Assembly: GCA_029261715.1 (NCBI GenBank)
Contig: JAJDAT010000016.1
Coordinates: 301,885 to 365,884 of the forward strand
DNA length: 64,000 nt
From: Nitrospinia bacterium
GTDB lineage: Bacteria; Nitrospinota; Nitrospinia; Nitrospinales; JAJDAT01
Direction of reading: 5' to 3'
The stretch's first letter is position 1, and each line of letters begins with the position of its first letter. The notes under the pieces are model-generated. The model searched no databases. It worked only from the letters and a program-made list of their open reading frames with translations, and was not told the DNA's origin. Shown here piece by piece: positions 17,195-24,425 of the stretch. The translations under genes were made by a program, and so were the position numbers.

Positions 17195-18021
17195 TGAATA
17201 ACCCAAACAATAATCCTTCAGAAAACGAATCACTGATATTAGAATCTAAAAACGTTTCTTTTCACTACACTCACGAAAAAGAAGAAGCCATTACAAACGT
17301 TTCTTTTAAAATCGAGCAGGGCGACTTTTTAGGAATAATAGGCCCAAACGGTTCTGGTAAATCCACTTTATTAAAATTGACCGCTGGAATTCTTGCCCCT
17401 TCTAAAGGAAAAGTATTTTATAAAAATCAACCTATTCCTGATTATAAGAAAAAAGATTTTGCGAAATTAGCAGCGTGGATTCCTCAAGAAGCTGGAATGG
17501 TCTTTCCTTTTAGAACTGAGGAAGTTGTATTAATGGGTAGGTATCCTTACAAATCGGGATTTTCTTTTGAAACGGAAGAAGATTTAAAAATTGCATCTGA
17601 AGTGATGGAACTGACAGGCACAAAGTTCCTCTTTGGTAAAAAGTTTACTGAAATTAGCGGAGGCGAAAAACAAAGGGTTTTGATCGCAAGCGCATTAGCT
17701 CAAAAACCGGAAACTCTAATCTTAGACGAACCGATTTCGTTCCTTGATATCAAGTATCAGATTGAAATTCTTGAAATTCTTCGAAAGCTCAATCAAAAAC
17801 ATTCCGTTACTGTAATCATCGCTCTTCACGATCTCAACTTAGCTTCAAAGTATTGCTCTCGGTTGCTTTTATTAAAAAATGGAAAAATGGTTCGCGAGGG
17901 ATCTCCAAACGCCATTTTAGAACAATCCATTATTGAATCGGTGTACGAAACACAAATTAAAACACTTATAGATGAAGAAGACGGTTCCTCAATAATCCTT
18001 CCTCGAACAAAAAATAATTGA
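17194..18021 (+). CDS. ABC transporter ATP-binding protein (BtuD/FepC type)
   Basis: Walker A GPNGSGKST, signature ISGGEKQR, Walker B LILDEP. Confidence 0.9.
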   Translation: MNNPNNNPSENESLILESKNVSFHYTHEKEEAITNVSFKIEQGDFLGIIGPNGSGKSTLLKLTAGILAPSKGKVFYKNQPIPDYKKKDFAKLAAWIPQEAGMVFPFRTEEVVLMGRYPYKSGFSFETEEDLKIASEVMELTGTKFLFGKKFTEISGGEKQRVLIASALAQKPETLILDEPISFLDIKYQIEILEILRKLNQKHSVTVIIALHDLNLASKYCSRLLLLKNGKMVREGSPNAILEQSIIESVYETQIKTLIDEEDGSSIILPRTKNN

Positions 18022-19028
18022 TGATTCTAGAATCTACAGGGAAGAAAATTTTTATTTCTTTAGGCTTATTTTTTGCGCTTTTTTTATCGACATTAGTCGT
18101 AGCTCCTATGATCGGGCCAGTCGATATTGACTTGAGCAATGCTTTATTTGGAGAAAACGTAGATTCGAGAAACGTAGATGCCGAAATTTTTTTCTTAGCC
18201 CGACTACCCCGTATCCTCCTCGCAGCTATTGCTGGAGCTGGGTTGGCCGTAGCCGGAGCAATTTTCCAGGCATTGCTGAGAAACGATTTAGCCGCTCCTT
18301 TCACCTTAGGAGTTTCGAGCGGCGCCTCCTTGGGAGCAGTTATCGCAATTCGTTTTTTAGGAGTCTCCCCACAAGGGTTCTCCTTAGTTCCTATTGCCGC
18401 ATTTTTGGGAAGTTTACTGGCTATTGGTCTTGTTTTTGGAATCGTACCTAATAGACGTGGCGAGCTTCCGGCCCCTGTTATGATTTTGGCCGGTGTCACC
18501 GTAAACTTTTTCTTCGCCGCTTTGGTTATGTTTATTCATTACATATCGGATATTTCACAATCATTCCAGATTGTTCGATGGTTAATGGGAGGACTAGACG
18601 TAACAGATTATTCAACTTTATTATGTATATCTCCTTTGGTTTTAATTGGAATCGCCTGTTTAATCTTCTTCAGCCGAGATCTAAACCTGCTGAGCGCTGG
18701 AATTGAATCCGCACAAAGTCGAGGAGTCGATATTATTCTTGTTCAAAGAGTCGGCTTTATCTGCGCCTCTTTAATTACCGGAGCTGTTGTCTCTGTTTGT
18801 GGCCCAATTACTTTTCTTGGTTTAATCGTTCCCCATATTGTTCGACTAATCGTTGGCCCAGATAATCGTATATTAATACCCGCTTCTATGTTTTTCGGGG
18901 CAGCATTTTTGATAATGTGCGATACCGTTGCAAGAACGATCATCGCTCCAGCAGAAATTCCTGTTGGTATTATTACCGCTATGTTGGGCGGACCATTTTT
19001 CGTTTGGCTACTTCGGAAAAAACTTTAA
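18021..19028 (+). CDS. FecCD/BtuC-family ABC permease
   Basis: Polytopic protein with RLPRILLAAIAGAGLAVAGAIFQ and GPITFLGLIVPHIVRLIVG motifs. The ATG overlaps the upstream TGA by one nt (TGATG). Confidence 0.9.
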   Translation: MILESTGKKIFISLGLFFALFLSTLVVAPMIGPVDIDLSNALFGENVDSRNVDAEIFFLARLPRILLAAIAGAGLAVAGAIFQALLRNDLAAPFTLGVSSGASLGAVIAIRFLGVSPQGFSLVPIAAFLGSLLAIGLVFGIVPNRRGELPAPVMILAGVTVNFFFAALVMFIHYISDISQSFQIVRWLMGGLDVTDYSTLLCISPLVLIGIACLIFFSRDLNLLSAGIESAQSRGVDIILVQRVGFICASLITGAVVSVCGPITFLGLIVPHIVRLIVGPDNRILIPASMFFGAAFLIMCDTVARTIIAPAEIPVGIITAMLGGPFFVWLLRKKL

Positions 19029-19302
19029 TCAATTCTCTTCTGTATATATAACTATTCTAATTATTAAAGCTAAAATAACGCAATAAATCCAACTATTCAC
19101 CATTGATAAAACTCTTTACTATACTTTCAGTATAGATATTTTGATCGCAAAGTTTCCAACGCTCTATTTTGTTTTTGAAAATATTAATCCAAATCCCTTG
19201 ATAACCAAAAGCTAGTAAGATATAAAAAAGAATCTAAATAATACGATATTGCTAAAAAATATTTAAAAAAGCATTTCTTTAATTCTTATACGAAAATATA
19301 CC

Positions 19303-20673
19303 ATGGATAACCAAAAAAATAACGAAAACATCAAAGTCTTTATAAGTTGTAAGTCTAATCATTATGACATCGCAGAAAAAATAATTAATAAACTTGATGC
19401 TTACGATGCCGCAGATAATTTAAGCTTTTTTCTGGCAAGAAAAATTGAAAAAGGGAAAAAATGGAAAGAGCAAATAGAAAACGAAATACAAAACTCTGAC
19501 TTCCTTCTAATGTTGCTGCTAGACAAAGACAAAGATTTGGATTGGTGTTTAAGGGAAGCTTATATGATGAATATTTTAAAGCGGCCTGTTATTTGTTTAC
19601 AAGCAGAGGACAATGAACAACATACAGAATTACCCGAGGACTTTAAGGAAATTCAAAAACTTAAATTAGAAATTAAAGATTTAACGGCTTTCCTAAAGGA
19701 TTTTTATGGAACCAATAAATACTACCCAGGGAAAAAAGCAATCAATCTGAAGCTTAGTAATAACGAAAATGAAACGGTTGAAATAGCTAACTCGATTTAT
19801 AATTGGTGTGTCATTCGCGAAAAAGAGCATCATAAATTTGGTAGAAATATAACTCTTCGTTTTAAATATAGTAAAAATATGGATACCTCGAAAATCCCCG
19901 ATGACGCCGAGATTATCGAAACGGATAGATTTTCTTTTAGAATATTCGGGGTACGCCCAACTCCCCCAGCAGGGAAAAACCATTGGCTATGGTCTGATTT
20001 ATTAGAAAAAGCTGGTATTTCTCCATATTCCCCTTGGATTTCGCAATTAACAAAATCAATTTTCAAAGCCTGTGAGAAAAAAACACACGATCCAATACAA
20101 GCAACCTTCGTCTCTTTAGATAGTACCGGAAGAACCTATTTACCTGTATTAGAAAGACACCGGAGTATTTCCAACGGAGAAATGGAAATTTCTATAATAT
20201 TCGTCGAACTTTTTCATAGAGAAATCGACAATATTCCTGAGGACCTAAAAAAACTAGGCGAAAGTATGAATATAGCCAAAAAGTTGCGCTGGGAAGTATT
20301 AGTAGATTATTTGGATAAAAGACTCCCCGCGTGGCAAGTTAATATTCCTTCTGAAAACGATTTTAGTGAACTTCAAAATGAATATTTATCTATTGTTGAA
20401 GAAGCAAAGGGTGTTTATTTAGGAGATTCTGAAGCTTTAATACCTATTTTTAAGCCTGGTGAAGAACGCAATCAATTCCTACGAATCTATTCTGAAATGA
20501 AAAATATTCAAGAACCAATTATTAATTCTCTGAAAGATCGACACATCGAAGACATAAGAAAAAACTTAGAAAAATTACGACAAATCAACAACGAATATCT
20601 AATCTTGGCAACAAAAAAAATGCTAGACACTTTTGAAAAAATTTTTAATGAAGAAAAAGAATACTTAGTTTAA
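19303..20673 (+). CDS. TIR-domain (TIR_2-like) protein with an unrecognised ~330-aa C-terminal region
   Basis: The N-terminus KVFISCKSNHYDIAEKIINKL...IEKGKKWKEQIENEIQNSDFLLMLL...DWCLREAYMM follows the bacterial TIR pattern, including the W-C-x-x-E segment that carries the catalytic Glu in TIR NADases. AT-rich spacers of about 250 bp flank it on both sides. Confidence 0.6.
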   Translation: MDNQKNNENIKVFISCKSNHYDIAEKIINKLDAYDAADNLSFFLARKIEKGKKWKEQIENEIQNSDFLLMLLLDKDKDLDWCLREAYMMNILKRPVICLQAEDNEQHTELPEDFKEIQKLKLEIKDLTAFLKDFYGTNKYYPGKKAINLKLSNNENETVEIANSIYNWCVIREKEHHKFGRNITLRFKYSKNMDTSKIPDDAEIIETDRFSFRIFGVRPTPPAGKNHWLWSDLLEKAGISPYSPWISQLTKSIFKACEKKTHDPIQATFVSLDSTGRTYLPVLERHRSISNGEMEISIIFVELFHREIDNIPEDLKKLGESMNIAKKLRWEVLVDYLDKRLPAWQVNIPSENDFSELQNEYLSIVEEAKGVYLGDSEALIPIFKPGEERNQFLRIYSEMKNIQEPIINSLKDRHIEDIRKNLEKLRQINNEYLILATKKMLDTFEKIFNEEKEYLV

Positions 20674-20865
20674 AAATATTTTGAAATTTTAAACTAAGAA
20701 CTCTCGGCAAACGATTTTTTTCTTTCCAATTTAAATTTAAGTAACCCCAAAAAAATCAAAAAATCTCTTTACCTCCTCTCTCTAATCAAATCTTAGCAAA
20801 CATCTTTAGCGACAATACTTAAAAATCAAAAAAATTATTCGTTAAGGATTTCACTACTCTTACAT

Positions 20866-20908
20866 TACAATTAAGATTTTATTTTTAGAAAATTAAACCT
20901 TAATTGTA
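20866..20908. promoter_or_regulatory. 10-bp inverted repeat immediately upstream of cobQ
   Basis: TACAATTAAG (20866-20875) and CTTAATTGTA (20899-20908) are separated by 23 nt. The repeat ends 11 nt before the start codon. Function unknown (operator or 5' hairpin). Confidence 0.3.
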
Positions 20909-20919
20909 TAAAGTAAAAA

Positions 20920-22428
20920 ATGTCCGCTAAAACACTGATGATACAGGGAACCGGTTCTGGCGTTGGAAAGAGCGTACTCGTAGCGGCGCTTTGCAGACGT
21001 TTTTTTAAAGACGGCTTACGAGTAGCTCCATTTAAAGCCCAAAACATGTCTCTAAACTCATTTGTGACTGAGGACGGCGGTGAAATGGGACGCGCCCAAG
21101 TGTTTCAAGCTGAAGCTTGCGGTTTAAAACCTTCCGTCGCTATGAATCCAATTCTGCTAAAACCTTCTTCCGACAATCATTCCCAAATAATCGTAATGGG
21201 CCGCCCTGTGGCTAATGCCGACGCAAAAAATTATTACCGAAATAAAGAAAGCTATTTTAAAGAAGCAATTTCCGCTTTTGAATCGCTGCAACAATCGTTC
21301 GACCTCATAGTGCTTGAAGGGGCTGGCAGTCCAGCGGAAATCAATCTCAAACAACACGATATCGTTAACATGCGTATGGCAAAATTAGCTAAGGCGCCTG
21401 TTCTAATAGTTGGAGACATTGATCGTGGAGGTGTTTTCGCTTGGATGAAAGGGACTTACGACTTATTAGATTCCTCAGAAAAAGATATTGTAAAAGGGTT
21501 CTTAATCAACAAATTTCGCGGAGATTTAGATTTATTAAAACCGGGCTTAATCCAATTCGAAGACTTGGTTCACAAACCTGTTTTAGGGGTAATTCCTTTT
21601 GATAGGGAATTATATGTCGACGAAGAAGATAGCGTTCCCTTGCCAAACATCTCGGGAGAAATAAACGGCATCCAGGACAAACTCAAAATTGACGTGATTC
21701 GACTTCCAAGAATCTCAAACTTTACCGACGTTTCTCCACTAATGTATAACCCAGGAATTCTACTACGCTATGTTTGGCGACCAGACCAAATTCAAAATCC
21801 AGACTTGATACTAATTCCGGGAAGTAAAAACGTTTTGGAAGATATGGAATTTTTAAAAAACCAGGGACTGGATAAAAAAATTCACCTCTGTCATAACAAA
21901 GGAACTTTAATTCTTGGAATCTGCGCAGGATTTCAAATGCTCGGAGACATATTAGAAGACCCTCATGGAATTGAAAGTTCAGCTAATAAAGTAAAAGGTT
22001 TGGGGTTGCTAAAAATGAAAACGGAAATTCAACCCGAAAAAATAACTCGGCAGACAAACCCATCTACCGGTGATAGTCCTGTTTTTAAGAGTGGGTTAAA
22101 CGCTTCTGGTTATGAAATTCATATGGGGACCTCACAAATTCAAGGCGATCATCCAGCTTTATTTGTCGACTCGAAGGGTAAAGGCAACCCGGAGCTTGGA
22201 ATATCTAATTCGGAGGGCACGGTTGTAGGGGCTTATATTCACGGTTTTCTAGATTCCAACTCTATTAGAGAAGCTTTTTTAAATCACATCTGCCAAAAAC
22301 GAAAGCTGCCAAAAAACTGCGCTTCTTTTGATTATAAAAAGTTCCGCGATGCCCAAATGGATCGTTTATGCGACTTGTTTTCTAATAACGTCGATATGGA
22401 AAAGATTTACGAAATCGTTCGATGCTAA
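20920..22428 (+). CDS. cobQ: Cobyric acid synthase
   Basis: LMIQGTGSGVGKS in the N-terminal ATPase domain and a C-terminal glutamine amidotransferase domain (GICAGFQMLG ... YIHG). Confidence 0.9.
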   Translation: MSAKTLMIQGTGSGVGKSVLVAALCRRFFKDGLRVAPFKAQNMSLNSFVTEDGGEMGRAQVFQAEACGLKPSVAMNPILLKPSSDNHSQIIVMGRPVANADAKNYYRNKESYFKEAISAFESLQQSFDLIVLEGAGSPAEINLKQHDIVNMRMAKLAKAPVLIVGDIDRGGVFAWMKGTYDLLDSSEKDIVKGFLINKFRGDLDLLKPGLIQFEDLVHKPVLGVIPFDRELYVDEEDSVPLPNISGEINGIQDKLKIDVIRLPRISNFTDVSPLMYNPGILLRYVWRPDQIQNPDLILIPGSKNVLEDMEFLKNQGLDKKIHLCHNKGTLILGICAGFQMLGDILEDPHGIESSANKVKGLGLLKMKTEIQPEKITRQTNPSTGDSPVFKSGLNASGYEIHMGTSQIQGDHPALFVDSKGKGNPELGISNSEGTVVGAYIHGFLDSNSIREAFLNHICQKRKLPKNCASFDYKKFRDAQMDRLCDLFSNNVDMEKIYEIVRC

Positions 22429-23174: not shown

Positions 23175-24425
23175 ATGTCAAAAAGAACTTTTCTCGTTAC
23201 CGGAGGGTGCCGAAGCGGGAAATCCAAACACGCCCTGGCTTTAGGAAACCGGTTTCCGGGTAAAAAAATATATATTGCTACCGCAGAAGCTCTTGATTCT
23301 GAAATGAAAACGCGGATTGCCCTTCATAAAGAAGAACGAGATCCTTCTTGGACGACTATTGAAGAGCCACAAGATCCAGCTTCTGCAATAAAAAGTATCG
23401 ATTCTGACAATTCAATTATTTTACTGGATTGTCTTTCCATTTGGGTCGCTAATCTACTTCTTGCCGACCGAAAACGCGAAGATATTCTAGAACAAACCAA
23501 AATATTAGCTGAAATGTCCTTAAAATCTCAAGCTTCGGTTATTATCGTCACTAACGAAGTTGGGGCGGGAATAGTTCCCGACAATAAATTAGCTCGCGAA
23601 TACCGAGATATAATCGGCGAAGCAAACCAAATAATTGCATCACACTTTGACGAAGTAGCCCATTGTGTCTCAGGAATTCCAGTCACAATAAAATCAAAAG
23701 GCAAAGAAAATTTTCAAGAACAAACAAACGAAGGGTCGACCCACGAGTTTTCACCCGAGAAAAAACAAGGACTTTACGACGCCATCTATAAGAGAAGGGA
23801 CGTCCGGCATTTTAATTCTAAGCCTGTTCCTCCTTCCGTTTTAGGCAAAATACTGAATGCCGCACACCATGCAGGTTCGGTAGGTTTTATGCAGCCTTGG
23901 AATTTCATGATTATTGATGATGTTCAAGTAAAAGCAAAAGTTAAAGAAATTTTTGAAAGATGCAGTGAAATCGCAGCCAAAAAGTTTTCTGAAGACCGCG
24001 AAAAACTATACAGATCGCTTAAATTAGAAGGCATTATGGAGGCCCCTATTAATCTCTGCATTACTTGCAATAGAAATCGATTAGGCTCTAACGTCTTAGG
24101 TCGAGACACTATCCCCGAGATGGATTTAATGAGCGCAGCATGCGCGGTACAAAATCTCTGGTTAGCTGCAAGAGCTGAAGGGGTTGGGGTCGGTTGGGTT
24201 AGCATTCTTTCCCAAGAAGAATTAAAAACCGCTTTAGAAATTCCTGACGACGTTGTTCCCATCGCTTACCTTTGCATCGGATATACGGATAACTTTCTAA
24301 AAAAACCAATGCTACAAACCGTAGGCTGGGAAGACCGCTTATCTATCGAAAATTTGGTGTACTACAATAAATGGGAAGGAAAGCCAGGTGAAAAACCTAT
24401 TGAATTCCCTTCTGGCGATTTTTAA
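23175..24425 (+). CDS. cobU/bluB: Fusion protein: adenosylcobinamide kinase/guanylyltransferase (CobU) plus 5,6-dimethylbenzimidazole synthase (BluB)
   Basis: The N-terminal ~175 aa show FLVTGGCRSGKS and IIVTNEVGAGIVP (CobU/CobP). The C-terminal ~215 aa show YKRRDVRHF and AAHHAGSVGFMQPWNF (nitroreductase-fold BluB signature). Confidence 0.85.
   Translation: MSKRTFLVTGGCRSGKSKHALALGNRFPGKKIYIATAEALDSEMKTRIALHKEERDPSWTTIEEPQDPASAIKSIDSDNSIILLDCLSIWVANLLLADRKREDILEQTKILAEMSLKSQASVIIVTNEVGAGIVPDNKLAREYRDIIGEANQIIASHFDEVAHCVSGIPVTIKSKGKENFQEQTNEGSTHEFSPEKKQGLYDAIYKRRDVRHFNSKPVPPSVLGKILNAAHHAGSVGFMQPWNFMIIDDVQVKAKVKEIFERCSEIAAKKFSEDREKLYRSLKLEGIMEAPINLCITCNRNRLGSNVLGRDTIPEMDLMSAACAVQNLWLAARAEGVGVGWVSILSQEELKTALEIPDDVVPIAYLCIGYTDNFLKKPMLQTVGWEDRLSIENLVYYNKWEGKPGEKPIEFPSGDF

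Follow-up and report, generated by a model that had tools for sequence, protein, structure and literature searches.

We identified a lineage-specific insertion with one gene in a vitamin B12 locus of a Nitrospinia bacterium (contig JAJDAT010000016.1 of assembly GCA_029261715.1). The whole stretch of this contig that was analysed, 64,000 nucleotides in length, is referred to here as the window. The insertion lies between a btuC-like gene, the last of three B12 importer genes, and cobQ, the first of a series of cobalamin genes (Table 1). Its single gene encodes a protein of 456 amino acids (aa) that consists of an N-terminal TIR domain, an alpha/beta middle domain and a helical C-terminal domain. 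A preliminary description of the window, prepared from the letters alone, had noted a TIR_2-like domain followed by about 330 aa without assignment, and had read the gene as a single-gene defence or stress module acquired into the locus.

Between btuC and cobQ, no open reading frame (ORF) on the + strand other than the TIR gene reaches 60 aa. The remaining ORFs of the insert are antisense frames of at most 96 aa overlapping within the TIR gene and frames of 20–58 aa, and no small ORF of interest is found among them. The spacers on either side of the gene have G+C contents of 23.7% and 23.2%, compared with a mean of 31.2% for the 24 intergenic stretches of more than 100 bp in the window. The gene itself, at 32.7% G+C, is the lowest among the 50 window ORFs of at least 150 aa (mean 38.5%, standard deviation 2.6, z = -2.2). 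The lone ORF, the very AT-rich spacers of 274 and 246 bp and the low G+C content of the gene, all of which had been pointed out in the preliminary description, are therefore borne out by measurement, and there is no second credible ORF.

The insert is absent from all nine relatives with which the locus was compared. Four of these belong to the same genus, a fifth represents a second genus of the family, and the remaining four come from other families of the order. In these genomes the last codon of btuC and the first codon of cobQ are separated by 2–20 nt, and the gene thus divides two blocks that are otherwise adjacent, as had been supposed. The junction in the four congeners consists of TAA, 3–16 nt and ATG. 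BtuC is 89–96% identical in these four, and in the three with a complete cobQ gene CobQ is 88–91% identical and starts 3–15 nt past the btuC stop. A search of 60 relatives returned no homologue of the 456-aa protein, and of 120 genomes of the phylum only this one is matched by a profile of the C-terminal region, leaving 119 without a match. The 5.33-Mb genome contains the insert once and has no further copy of either flank. Four assembled contigs encode the identical protein; one of these, a Logan-assembly contig, stops 41 nt upstream of the gene. Given the empty site in nine relatives, the single copy, the low G+C content and the lack of a homologue in the 119 other genomes of the phylum, it is strongly supported that positions 19029–20919 are foreign DNA that entered the short btuC-cobQ spacer in this lineage only, and the evidence supports an acquisition that is both recent and lineage-specific. 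In the relatives btuC and cobQ lie so close together that their translation could be coupled. Expression of cobQ and of the genes downstream of it must have been altered by the insertion. The cobQ gene is nonetheless intact.

The TIR assignment is strongly supported. The Pfam TIR_2 model (PF13676) matches aa 12–122 with 38.4 bits and so exceeds its gathering score of 28. The motifs on which the domain had originally been recognised are found at aa 11–18 (KVFISCKS), 65–72 (SDFLLMLL) and 80–85 (DWCLRE), and the last of these contains the WxxxE motif W81-C-L-R-E85, which lies on a predicted helix spanning residues 80–91. In a 60-sequence alignment of the family, W81 is kept in all 54 ungapped sequences and E85 in 52 of 56. 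A Foldseek comparison with crystal structures of the SARM1 TIR domain gives target-normalised template modelling (TM) scores of 0.60–0.69 at a root-mean-square deviation (rmsd) of about 4 Å, in agreement with the flavodoxin-like fold of TIR domains. Searched against the PDB, the family profile matches only TIR chains, including that of SpbK through its TIR domain, and some spurious helical chains; matches in a library of viral structures are solely to the TIR or nucleoside 2-deoxyribosyltransferase fold. The catalytic glutamate is intact, which is equally well supported. In AbTir the tryptophan and glutamate of the WxxxE motif act in NAD+ hydrolysis (PMC10641520), and from its sequence the protein is predicted to be an NADase.

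The C-terminal region of about 330 aa, which the preliminary description had left unassigned, matches no family in Pfam, PADLOC or NCBIfam and has no sequence match in the PDB. When AlphaFold2 was given the 60-sequence alignment, the whole protein was modelled with a mean predicted local distance difference test score (pLDDT) of 91.4 and a predicted TM score of 0.66; from the single sequence the pLDDT was 42.6. The region is thus confidently modelled, as an alpha/beta domain and a domain of five helices. In the middle domain F215 and W230 are invariant, W245 and P281 are kept in at least 90% of sequences, and L249 is conserved. In the helical domain F383 and N429 are kept in at least 90%, with further conservation at R/K327, E331 and E367; E331, E367, F383 and N429 are all present in this protein. 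The conserved positions of the C-terminal region are mostly aromatic or hydrophobic, with few charged residues on the helices, and they include no obvious catalytic set. Chimeras of LOV domains with a kinase or a DARPin match the model weakly in Foldseek (E of about 0.02–0.03 over 258–284 columns).

The C-terminal region defines a family. An exhaustive HMMER search of 1.84 billion cluster representatives with aa 120–456 as the query identified 163 representatives with E ≤ 1e-3, of which 47 reached 1e-10 or below and three 1e-30 or below, corresponding to about 160 clusters at 50% identity. Word-indexed searches with the 456-aa protein, a 12-sequence alignment and the closest homologue (P0002) returned almost nothing, and with the 456-aa protein they returned only itself. 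With a hidden Markov model for each of the three parts, derived from the alignment, we sorted 149 representatives by architecture. The complete TIR-middle-helical order is present in 105, and one has a second TIR domain in front of it (TIR-TIR-middle-helical). A further 20 are TIR-middle proteins of about 300 aa, 21 are short middle-helical proteins and two are fragments. The 21 short proteins start in or just before the middle domain and are probably truncated by contig ends. The TIR-middle form, on the other hand, is real, since at least one such member (L027, 319 aa) is located on a complete chromosome. Pfam detects TIR_2 in 53 members of a set of 60 and in 53 of a set of 86, and apart from it no domain recurs. 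One member has an extra N-terminal AAA ATPase, and no alternative effector domain was found in the family. From the census and the lack of any other recurrent domain we conclude that the C-terminal region occurs only behind TIR. The evidence supports a real family, widespread but rare, with a fixed three-part architecture. Based on the model and on a region that is conserved, confidently folded, divided into two domains and confined to TIR proteins, a role for it as a sensor is plausible.

The fold matches raise the question of whether the protein belongs with the TIR-APAZ subunits of SPARTA, its short Argonaute having been lost or acting in trans. The top eleven Foldseek matches in the PDB, and the best over the full length, are SPARTA TIR-APAZ chains (among them PDB 8oz6_A, 8qlp and 8spo), with E-values of 7e-5 to 9e-4 over 365–406 columns. 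The layout is also similar, with an N-terminal TIR domain bearing the catalytic glutamate, a helical linker and a non-catalytic region of about 280 aa in a protein of about 450 aa (PMC10899771). However, the TM scores of these matches are 0.24–0.26 at an rmsd of 24–28 Å, about what the TIR domain alone would contribute. A Piwi-domain protein (PF02171) is found neither in this genome, which is 96.9% complete, nor in eight other genomes that carry the family, though control genomes were matched, and unlike SPARTA there is no short Argonaute, adjacent or distant, in any of the nine. PADLOC models of the Aga_TIR-PNTD type do not match the C-terminal region, nor do they match the C-terminal regions of 15 family members at E ≤ 10. 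Comparison by hhalign with two genuine TIR-APAZ proteins aligned 27 residues of the TIR domain at a probability of 3.8%, the template profile consisting of just these two sequences. Similarity in sequence or profile is therefore limited to TIR, and the C-terminal third is here a bundle of long helices. In addition, APAZ combines with several effector domains (PMC10899771), whereas the C-terminal region described here is found with TIR only. We consider this explanation very improbable. Since there is neither a Piwi protein nor profile similarity in the C-terminal region, the protein is not a SPARTA member: no short Argonaute is adjacent or elsewhere in the genome, and APAZ is not recognisable by sequence profile. 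The C-terminal region is possibly a very distant relative of APAZ.

The two templates come from a search of 401 genomes, and in both cases an ORF resembling a short Argonaute follows the TIR-APAZ gene. These operons (L071, G355:C88:10545-11855; L072, G391:C1:1467398-1468708) are of the SPARTA type. They encode a TIR-APAZ protein of about 640 aa with an extra N-terminal domain of about 200 aa, and a 483-aa ORF resembling a short Argonaute directly follows.

We recovered 34 loci of the family from species-representative genomes using the 12-sequence alignment. Full-length or TIR-middle matches occur in eight named phyla: Pseudomonadota, Planctomycetota, Nitrospirota, Desulfobacterota, Actinomycetota, Acidobacteriota, Binatia and Margulisiibacteriota. 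Like that of anti-phage systems in general, the distribution is patchy, with one carrier among 120 genomes of this phylum and loci in at least eight other phyla. In five other hosts the gene has a G+C content 6–15 points below that of its surroundings, and other members are fully ameliorated. The closest homologue, P0002 (L067:8001-9377, JGI 3300041080), has 458 aa and is 38% identical. It stands alone among housekeeping genes, with spacers of 529 bp and 390 bp, between an adh_short gene and a gene for an FlgT_C/FG-GAP protein, and its G+C content of 43% is 13.7 points lower than the 57% of its contig. Owing to its low G+C content and solitary position, P0002 has the appearance of a second independent recent acquisition.

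A different arrangement is seen for P0016 (L068:2089-4028, Logan ERR1857216), whose own TIR domain has lost the glutamate of the WxxxE motif. This gene starts 20 nt after a separate TIR_2 gene of 173 aa, and a resolvase gene and a MazE-like gene are located alongside. The locus may be a split version, with a catalytic TIR protein and a degenerate-TIR sensor, on a mobile element.

TIR proteins of the Thoeris type act as signal generators, and the protein could likewise produce a messenger derived from cyclic ADP-ribose or ADP-ribose (ADPR) upon infection, with its effector encoded elsewhere in the genome. TIR signalling systems are common and diverse (bioRxiv 10.64898/2025.12.03.692087), and among 60 family members tested with PADLOC the ThsB TIR models match 32, with E-values down to 2.5e-8. 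The spbK model matches 15 of the 60, via the TIR domain. The ThsB matches are also confined to TIR, because the C-terminal region alone matches nothing. NCBIfam gives nothing significant for the 456-aa protein, and the Thoeris model ThcB4 reaches E = 0.05 and 12.4 bits compared with a cut-off of 220. Unlike Thoeris, there is no adjacent effector, neither ThsA nor any other. The gene came alone on a 1.9-kb insert, and when the ORFs neighbouring 22 family loci were clustered no protein family was common to more than three loci. The preliminary description had the gene as a single-gene unit, and both results strongly support this. A Thoeris-like role therefore seems improbable to us.

Alternatively, the TIR fold could serve an enzyme with a metabolic or regulatory role, such as NAD or nucleotide turnover under stress, or a base exchange tied to the cobalamin nucleotide-loop genes. 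The gene is located in a cob/btu operon in which the downstream genes build the lower ligand, the fold resembles nucleoside 2-deoxyribosyltransferases and N-glycosidases (DNPH1, BcmB and MilB, E-values of 5e-3 to 3e-2), and the neighbours of the homologues are mostly housekeeping genes. Nevertheless, all nine relatives maintain the same operon without the gene, and cob or btu genes are not a recurring feature of the 22 homologous loci. The patchy phyletic spread and foreign composition are likewise difficult to reconcile with such a role, and we regard it as unlikely.

We favour, with confidence slightly above even, a horizontally acquired single-protein TIR NADase that carries its own sensor and assembly region and probably acts in abortive-infection defence. 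The proposed mechanism is drawn from the analogy with SpbK and the single-protein TIR systems of E. coli and from the finding that activation of TIR NADases requires oligomerisation (PMC10899771). The protein would be inactive as a monomer or small oligomer until the C-terminal region senses a cue of infection, for which phage proteins, nucleic acids and small molecules are candidates. Sensing would then lead to higher-order assembly, in which TIR domains are joined into composite active sites, and the resulting NAD+ cleavage would cause depletion or yield products of the ADPR type. The infected cell would arrest growth or die, a form of abortive infection that needs a single protein. Both the role against phage and the activation by oligomerisation are conditional on these analogies. 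Of the earlier proposal of a single-gene defence module acquired into the locus, the acquisition, the single-gene unit and the TIR domain stand, and the defence part is that of a candidate.

Several observations weigh against a defence gene that arrived by horizontal transfer. Among the 108 ORFs flanking the homologues most have housekeeping Pfam families. About seven or eight resemble defence genes (two patatins, two TIR_2 proteins, CHAT-TPR, MzaA, SduA and a subtilase, with one transposase in addition), which is too few for a claim of enrichment; the ORFs were called by a crude procedure, without a control set. The viral contigs of IMG/VR, the plasmids of PLSDB and the GenBank phages yielded no relatives in searches with one motif or one query sequence. 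No PADLOC model reaches past the TIR domain of the protein; where the preliminary description had looked to such models, PycTIR matches the TIR part weakly (24 bits, model positions 147–266 of 288) and the C-terminal region is matched by none. The deviation of the gene in G+C content at third codon positions is modest (z = -1.4). The insert ORFs examined encode no integrase and no transposase, and the insert has no terminal inverted or direct repeats and no target duplication beyond matches of chance size.

It is also conceivable that the gene is a recent passenger that has no current function in the host and is silent or decaying. It is unique to one lineage and breaks a tightly coupled operon. 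No Shine-Dalgarno sequence is recognisable at the TIR gene, and although one sigma-70-like site is present in the left spacer (19096–19125), the count of promoter-like sites in that region is not above the expectation from shuffles. The reading frame of 456 codons is intact, however, and all residues conserved in the family are kept, including W81, E85, F215 and W230. The agreement of the four contigs in protein sequence and the intact cobQ downstream also speak against a passenger. We therefore give the passenger explanation little credence.

The arrangement that we favour, a TIR NADase with its own sensing region, has precedents among known systems. SpbK of Bacillus subtilis (PDB 9phb) is a single-gene TIR abortive-infection protein whose mechanism has been described (PMC12847820). 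It resembles the protein described here, in which the activity is predicted, in that a TIR NADase and a non-catalytic sensing part are joined in one protein with no partner gene. SpbK differs in its length of about 290 aa, in its C-terminal TIR domain, which is N-terminal here, in the unrelated other domain, and in having a known trigger, the phage protein YonE. In E. coli, 12 of 32 TIR systems tested defended against phage, and mutations of the TIR active site abolished defence in all 12 active systems (PMC11350192). That study reported nine new systems (TIR-I to TIR-IX), four of which are single proteins (Wang et al. 2024, PMC11350192); the TIR-dependent, abortive-type defence of these four has its candidate counterpart in the gene described here. 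The extra domains of the nine are transmembrane, AAA, TPR or DUF4238 in four and none is named in the others (PMC11350192), and by description none is reported to have an alpha/beta and helical region.

The TIR effectors of CBASS and Pycsar (TIR-SAVED, TIR-STING and PycTIR) are similar in that TIR is fused to a sensing domain, which in the present protein is a candidate one; theirs are ligand-sensing NADases activated by oligomerisation. In contrast to these, Pfam and PADLOC find no SAVED, STING or cyclic-nucleotide-binding domain in the protein, and the insert contains no cyclase gene.

Judging from the sequence searches, the family is absent from Pfam and PADLOC beyond the TIR domain and its C-terminal region appears undescribed. 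We tentatively propose, with less than even confidence, that the alpha/beta and five-helix domains together form a new module for sensing and assembly that serves TIR domains exclusively and may derive, very remotely, from the Argonaute-associated APAZ scaffold, and that this module couples detection of infection to NAD+ destruction without an Argonaute, a cyclase or any other partner. The roughly 160 clusters at 50% identity, spread over at least nine phyla, would then make up a new family of one-gene anti-phage systems that lies outside Pfam and PADLOC beyond TIR. If the family does defend its hosts, a compact, partner-free system with an undescribed sensing region would be added to the known TIR systems. 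The existence of a confident structural model would make the trigger and the activation mechanism directly testable. If the resemblance to TIR-APAZ is real, it would also bear on the origin of SPARTA-type systems.

The locus is in addition an unusually clean case of a single immune-like gene within a translationally coupled housekeeping operon, for which the exact empty site is present in relatives. It is useful for studies of the spread of such genes in the absence of recognisable mobility genes and of the cost that an insertion imposes on the host operon.

Table 1. Coordinates, in window positions, of the insertion, its parts and the neighbouring genes
Feature	Position	Strand	Remarks
Peripla_BP_2 gene	16295-17194		upstream of the insert; Pfam
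ABC_tran gene	17194-18021		upstream of the insert; Pfam
btuC-like permease gene (FecCD family)	18018-19028	+	Pfam FecCD, 303 bits; stop codon TAA at 19026-19028 is the left insertion boundary
Lineage-specific insertion with one gene	19029-20919	none	1891 bp; 30.1% G+C against 37.8% for the window
Left AT-rich spacer	19029-19302	none	274 bp, 23.7% G+C; presumed promoter region of the TIR gene
TIR gene	19303-20673	+	456 aa; TIR, alpha/beta and helical domains; ORF and alignment-based AlphaFold2 model
TIR domain	19330-19710	+	aa 10-136; Pfam TIR_2 and SARM1 TIR fold matches
WxxxE motif	19543-19557	+	W81-C-L-R-E85; family conservation, role from PMC10641520
Linker helices and alpha/beta middle domain	19747-20211	+	aa 149-170 and aa 181-303; from the model; PAS-like order strand-strand-helices-strands
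C-terminal domain of five long helices	20239-20667	+	aa 313-455; from the model; the family has Arg at the position of K327 in 50 of 60 members
Hairpin and T-run	20658-20725	+	hairpin (20658-20704) across the stop codon of the TIR gene, then T-run; possible terminator; 18-nt arms, 89% complementary
Right AT-rich spacer	20674-20919	none	246 bp, 23.2% G+C
Near-perfect palindrome	20866-20908	none	43 nt; right edge of the insert, stopping 11 nt short of the cobQ ATG
cobQ (cobyric acid synthase)	20920-22428	+	Pfam GATase_3 and CbiA; right insertion boundary

Two structured elements were identified in the non-coding part of the insert. The hairpin that spans the stop codon of the TIR gene has a predicted fold of -16.6 kcal/mol (z = -2.8 compared with shuffles), and it was missed by a terminator scan based on G+C content because it is AT-rich. 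The palindrome at the right edge has 20-nt arms that are 90% complementary and a loop of 3 nt, with a fold z of -3.1 and no further copy in the genome. Neither element is common to the flanks of the nearest homologues, and no conserved non-coding sequence was found between this locus and those of P0002 and P0016. Rfam models give nothing at the gathering score in the window and nothing at E ≤ 1 in positions 15300–21100. With no cobalamin riboswitch detected, the right spacer is not such an element.

Downstream of cobQ, the annotation of an identical contig lists cobS, a cobU-nitroreductase fusion and an aminotransferase gene. In the fusion (23175–24425), the precomputed annotation of that contig places both CobU (PF02283) and a Nitroreductase/BluB-like domain (PF00881) in one product of 416 aa.

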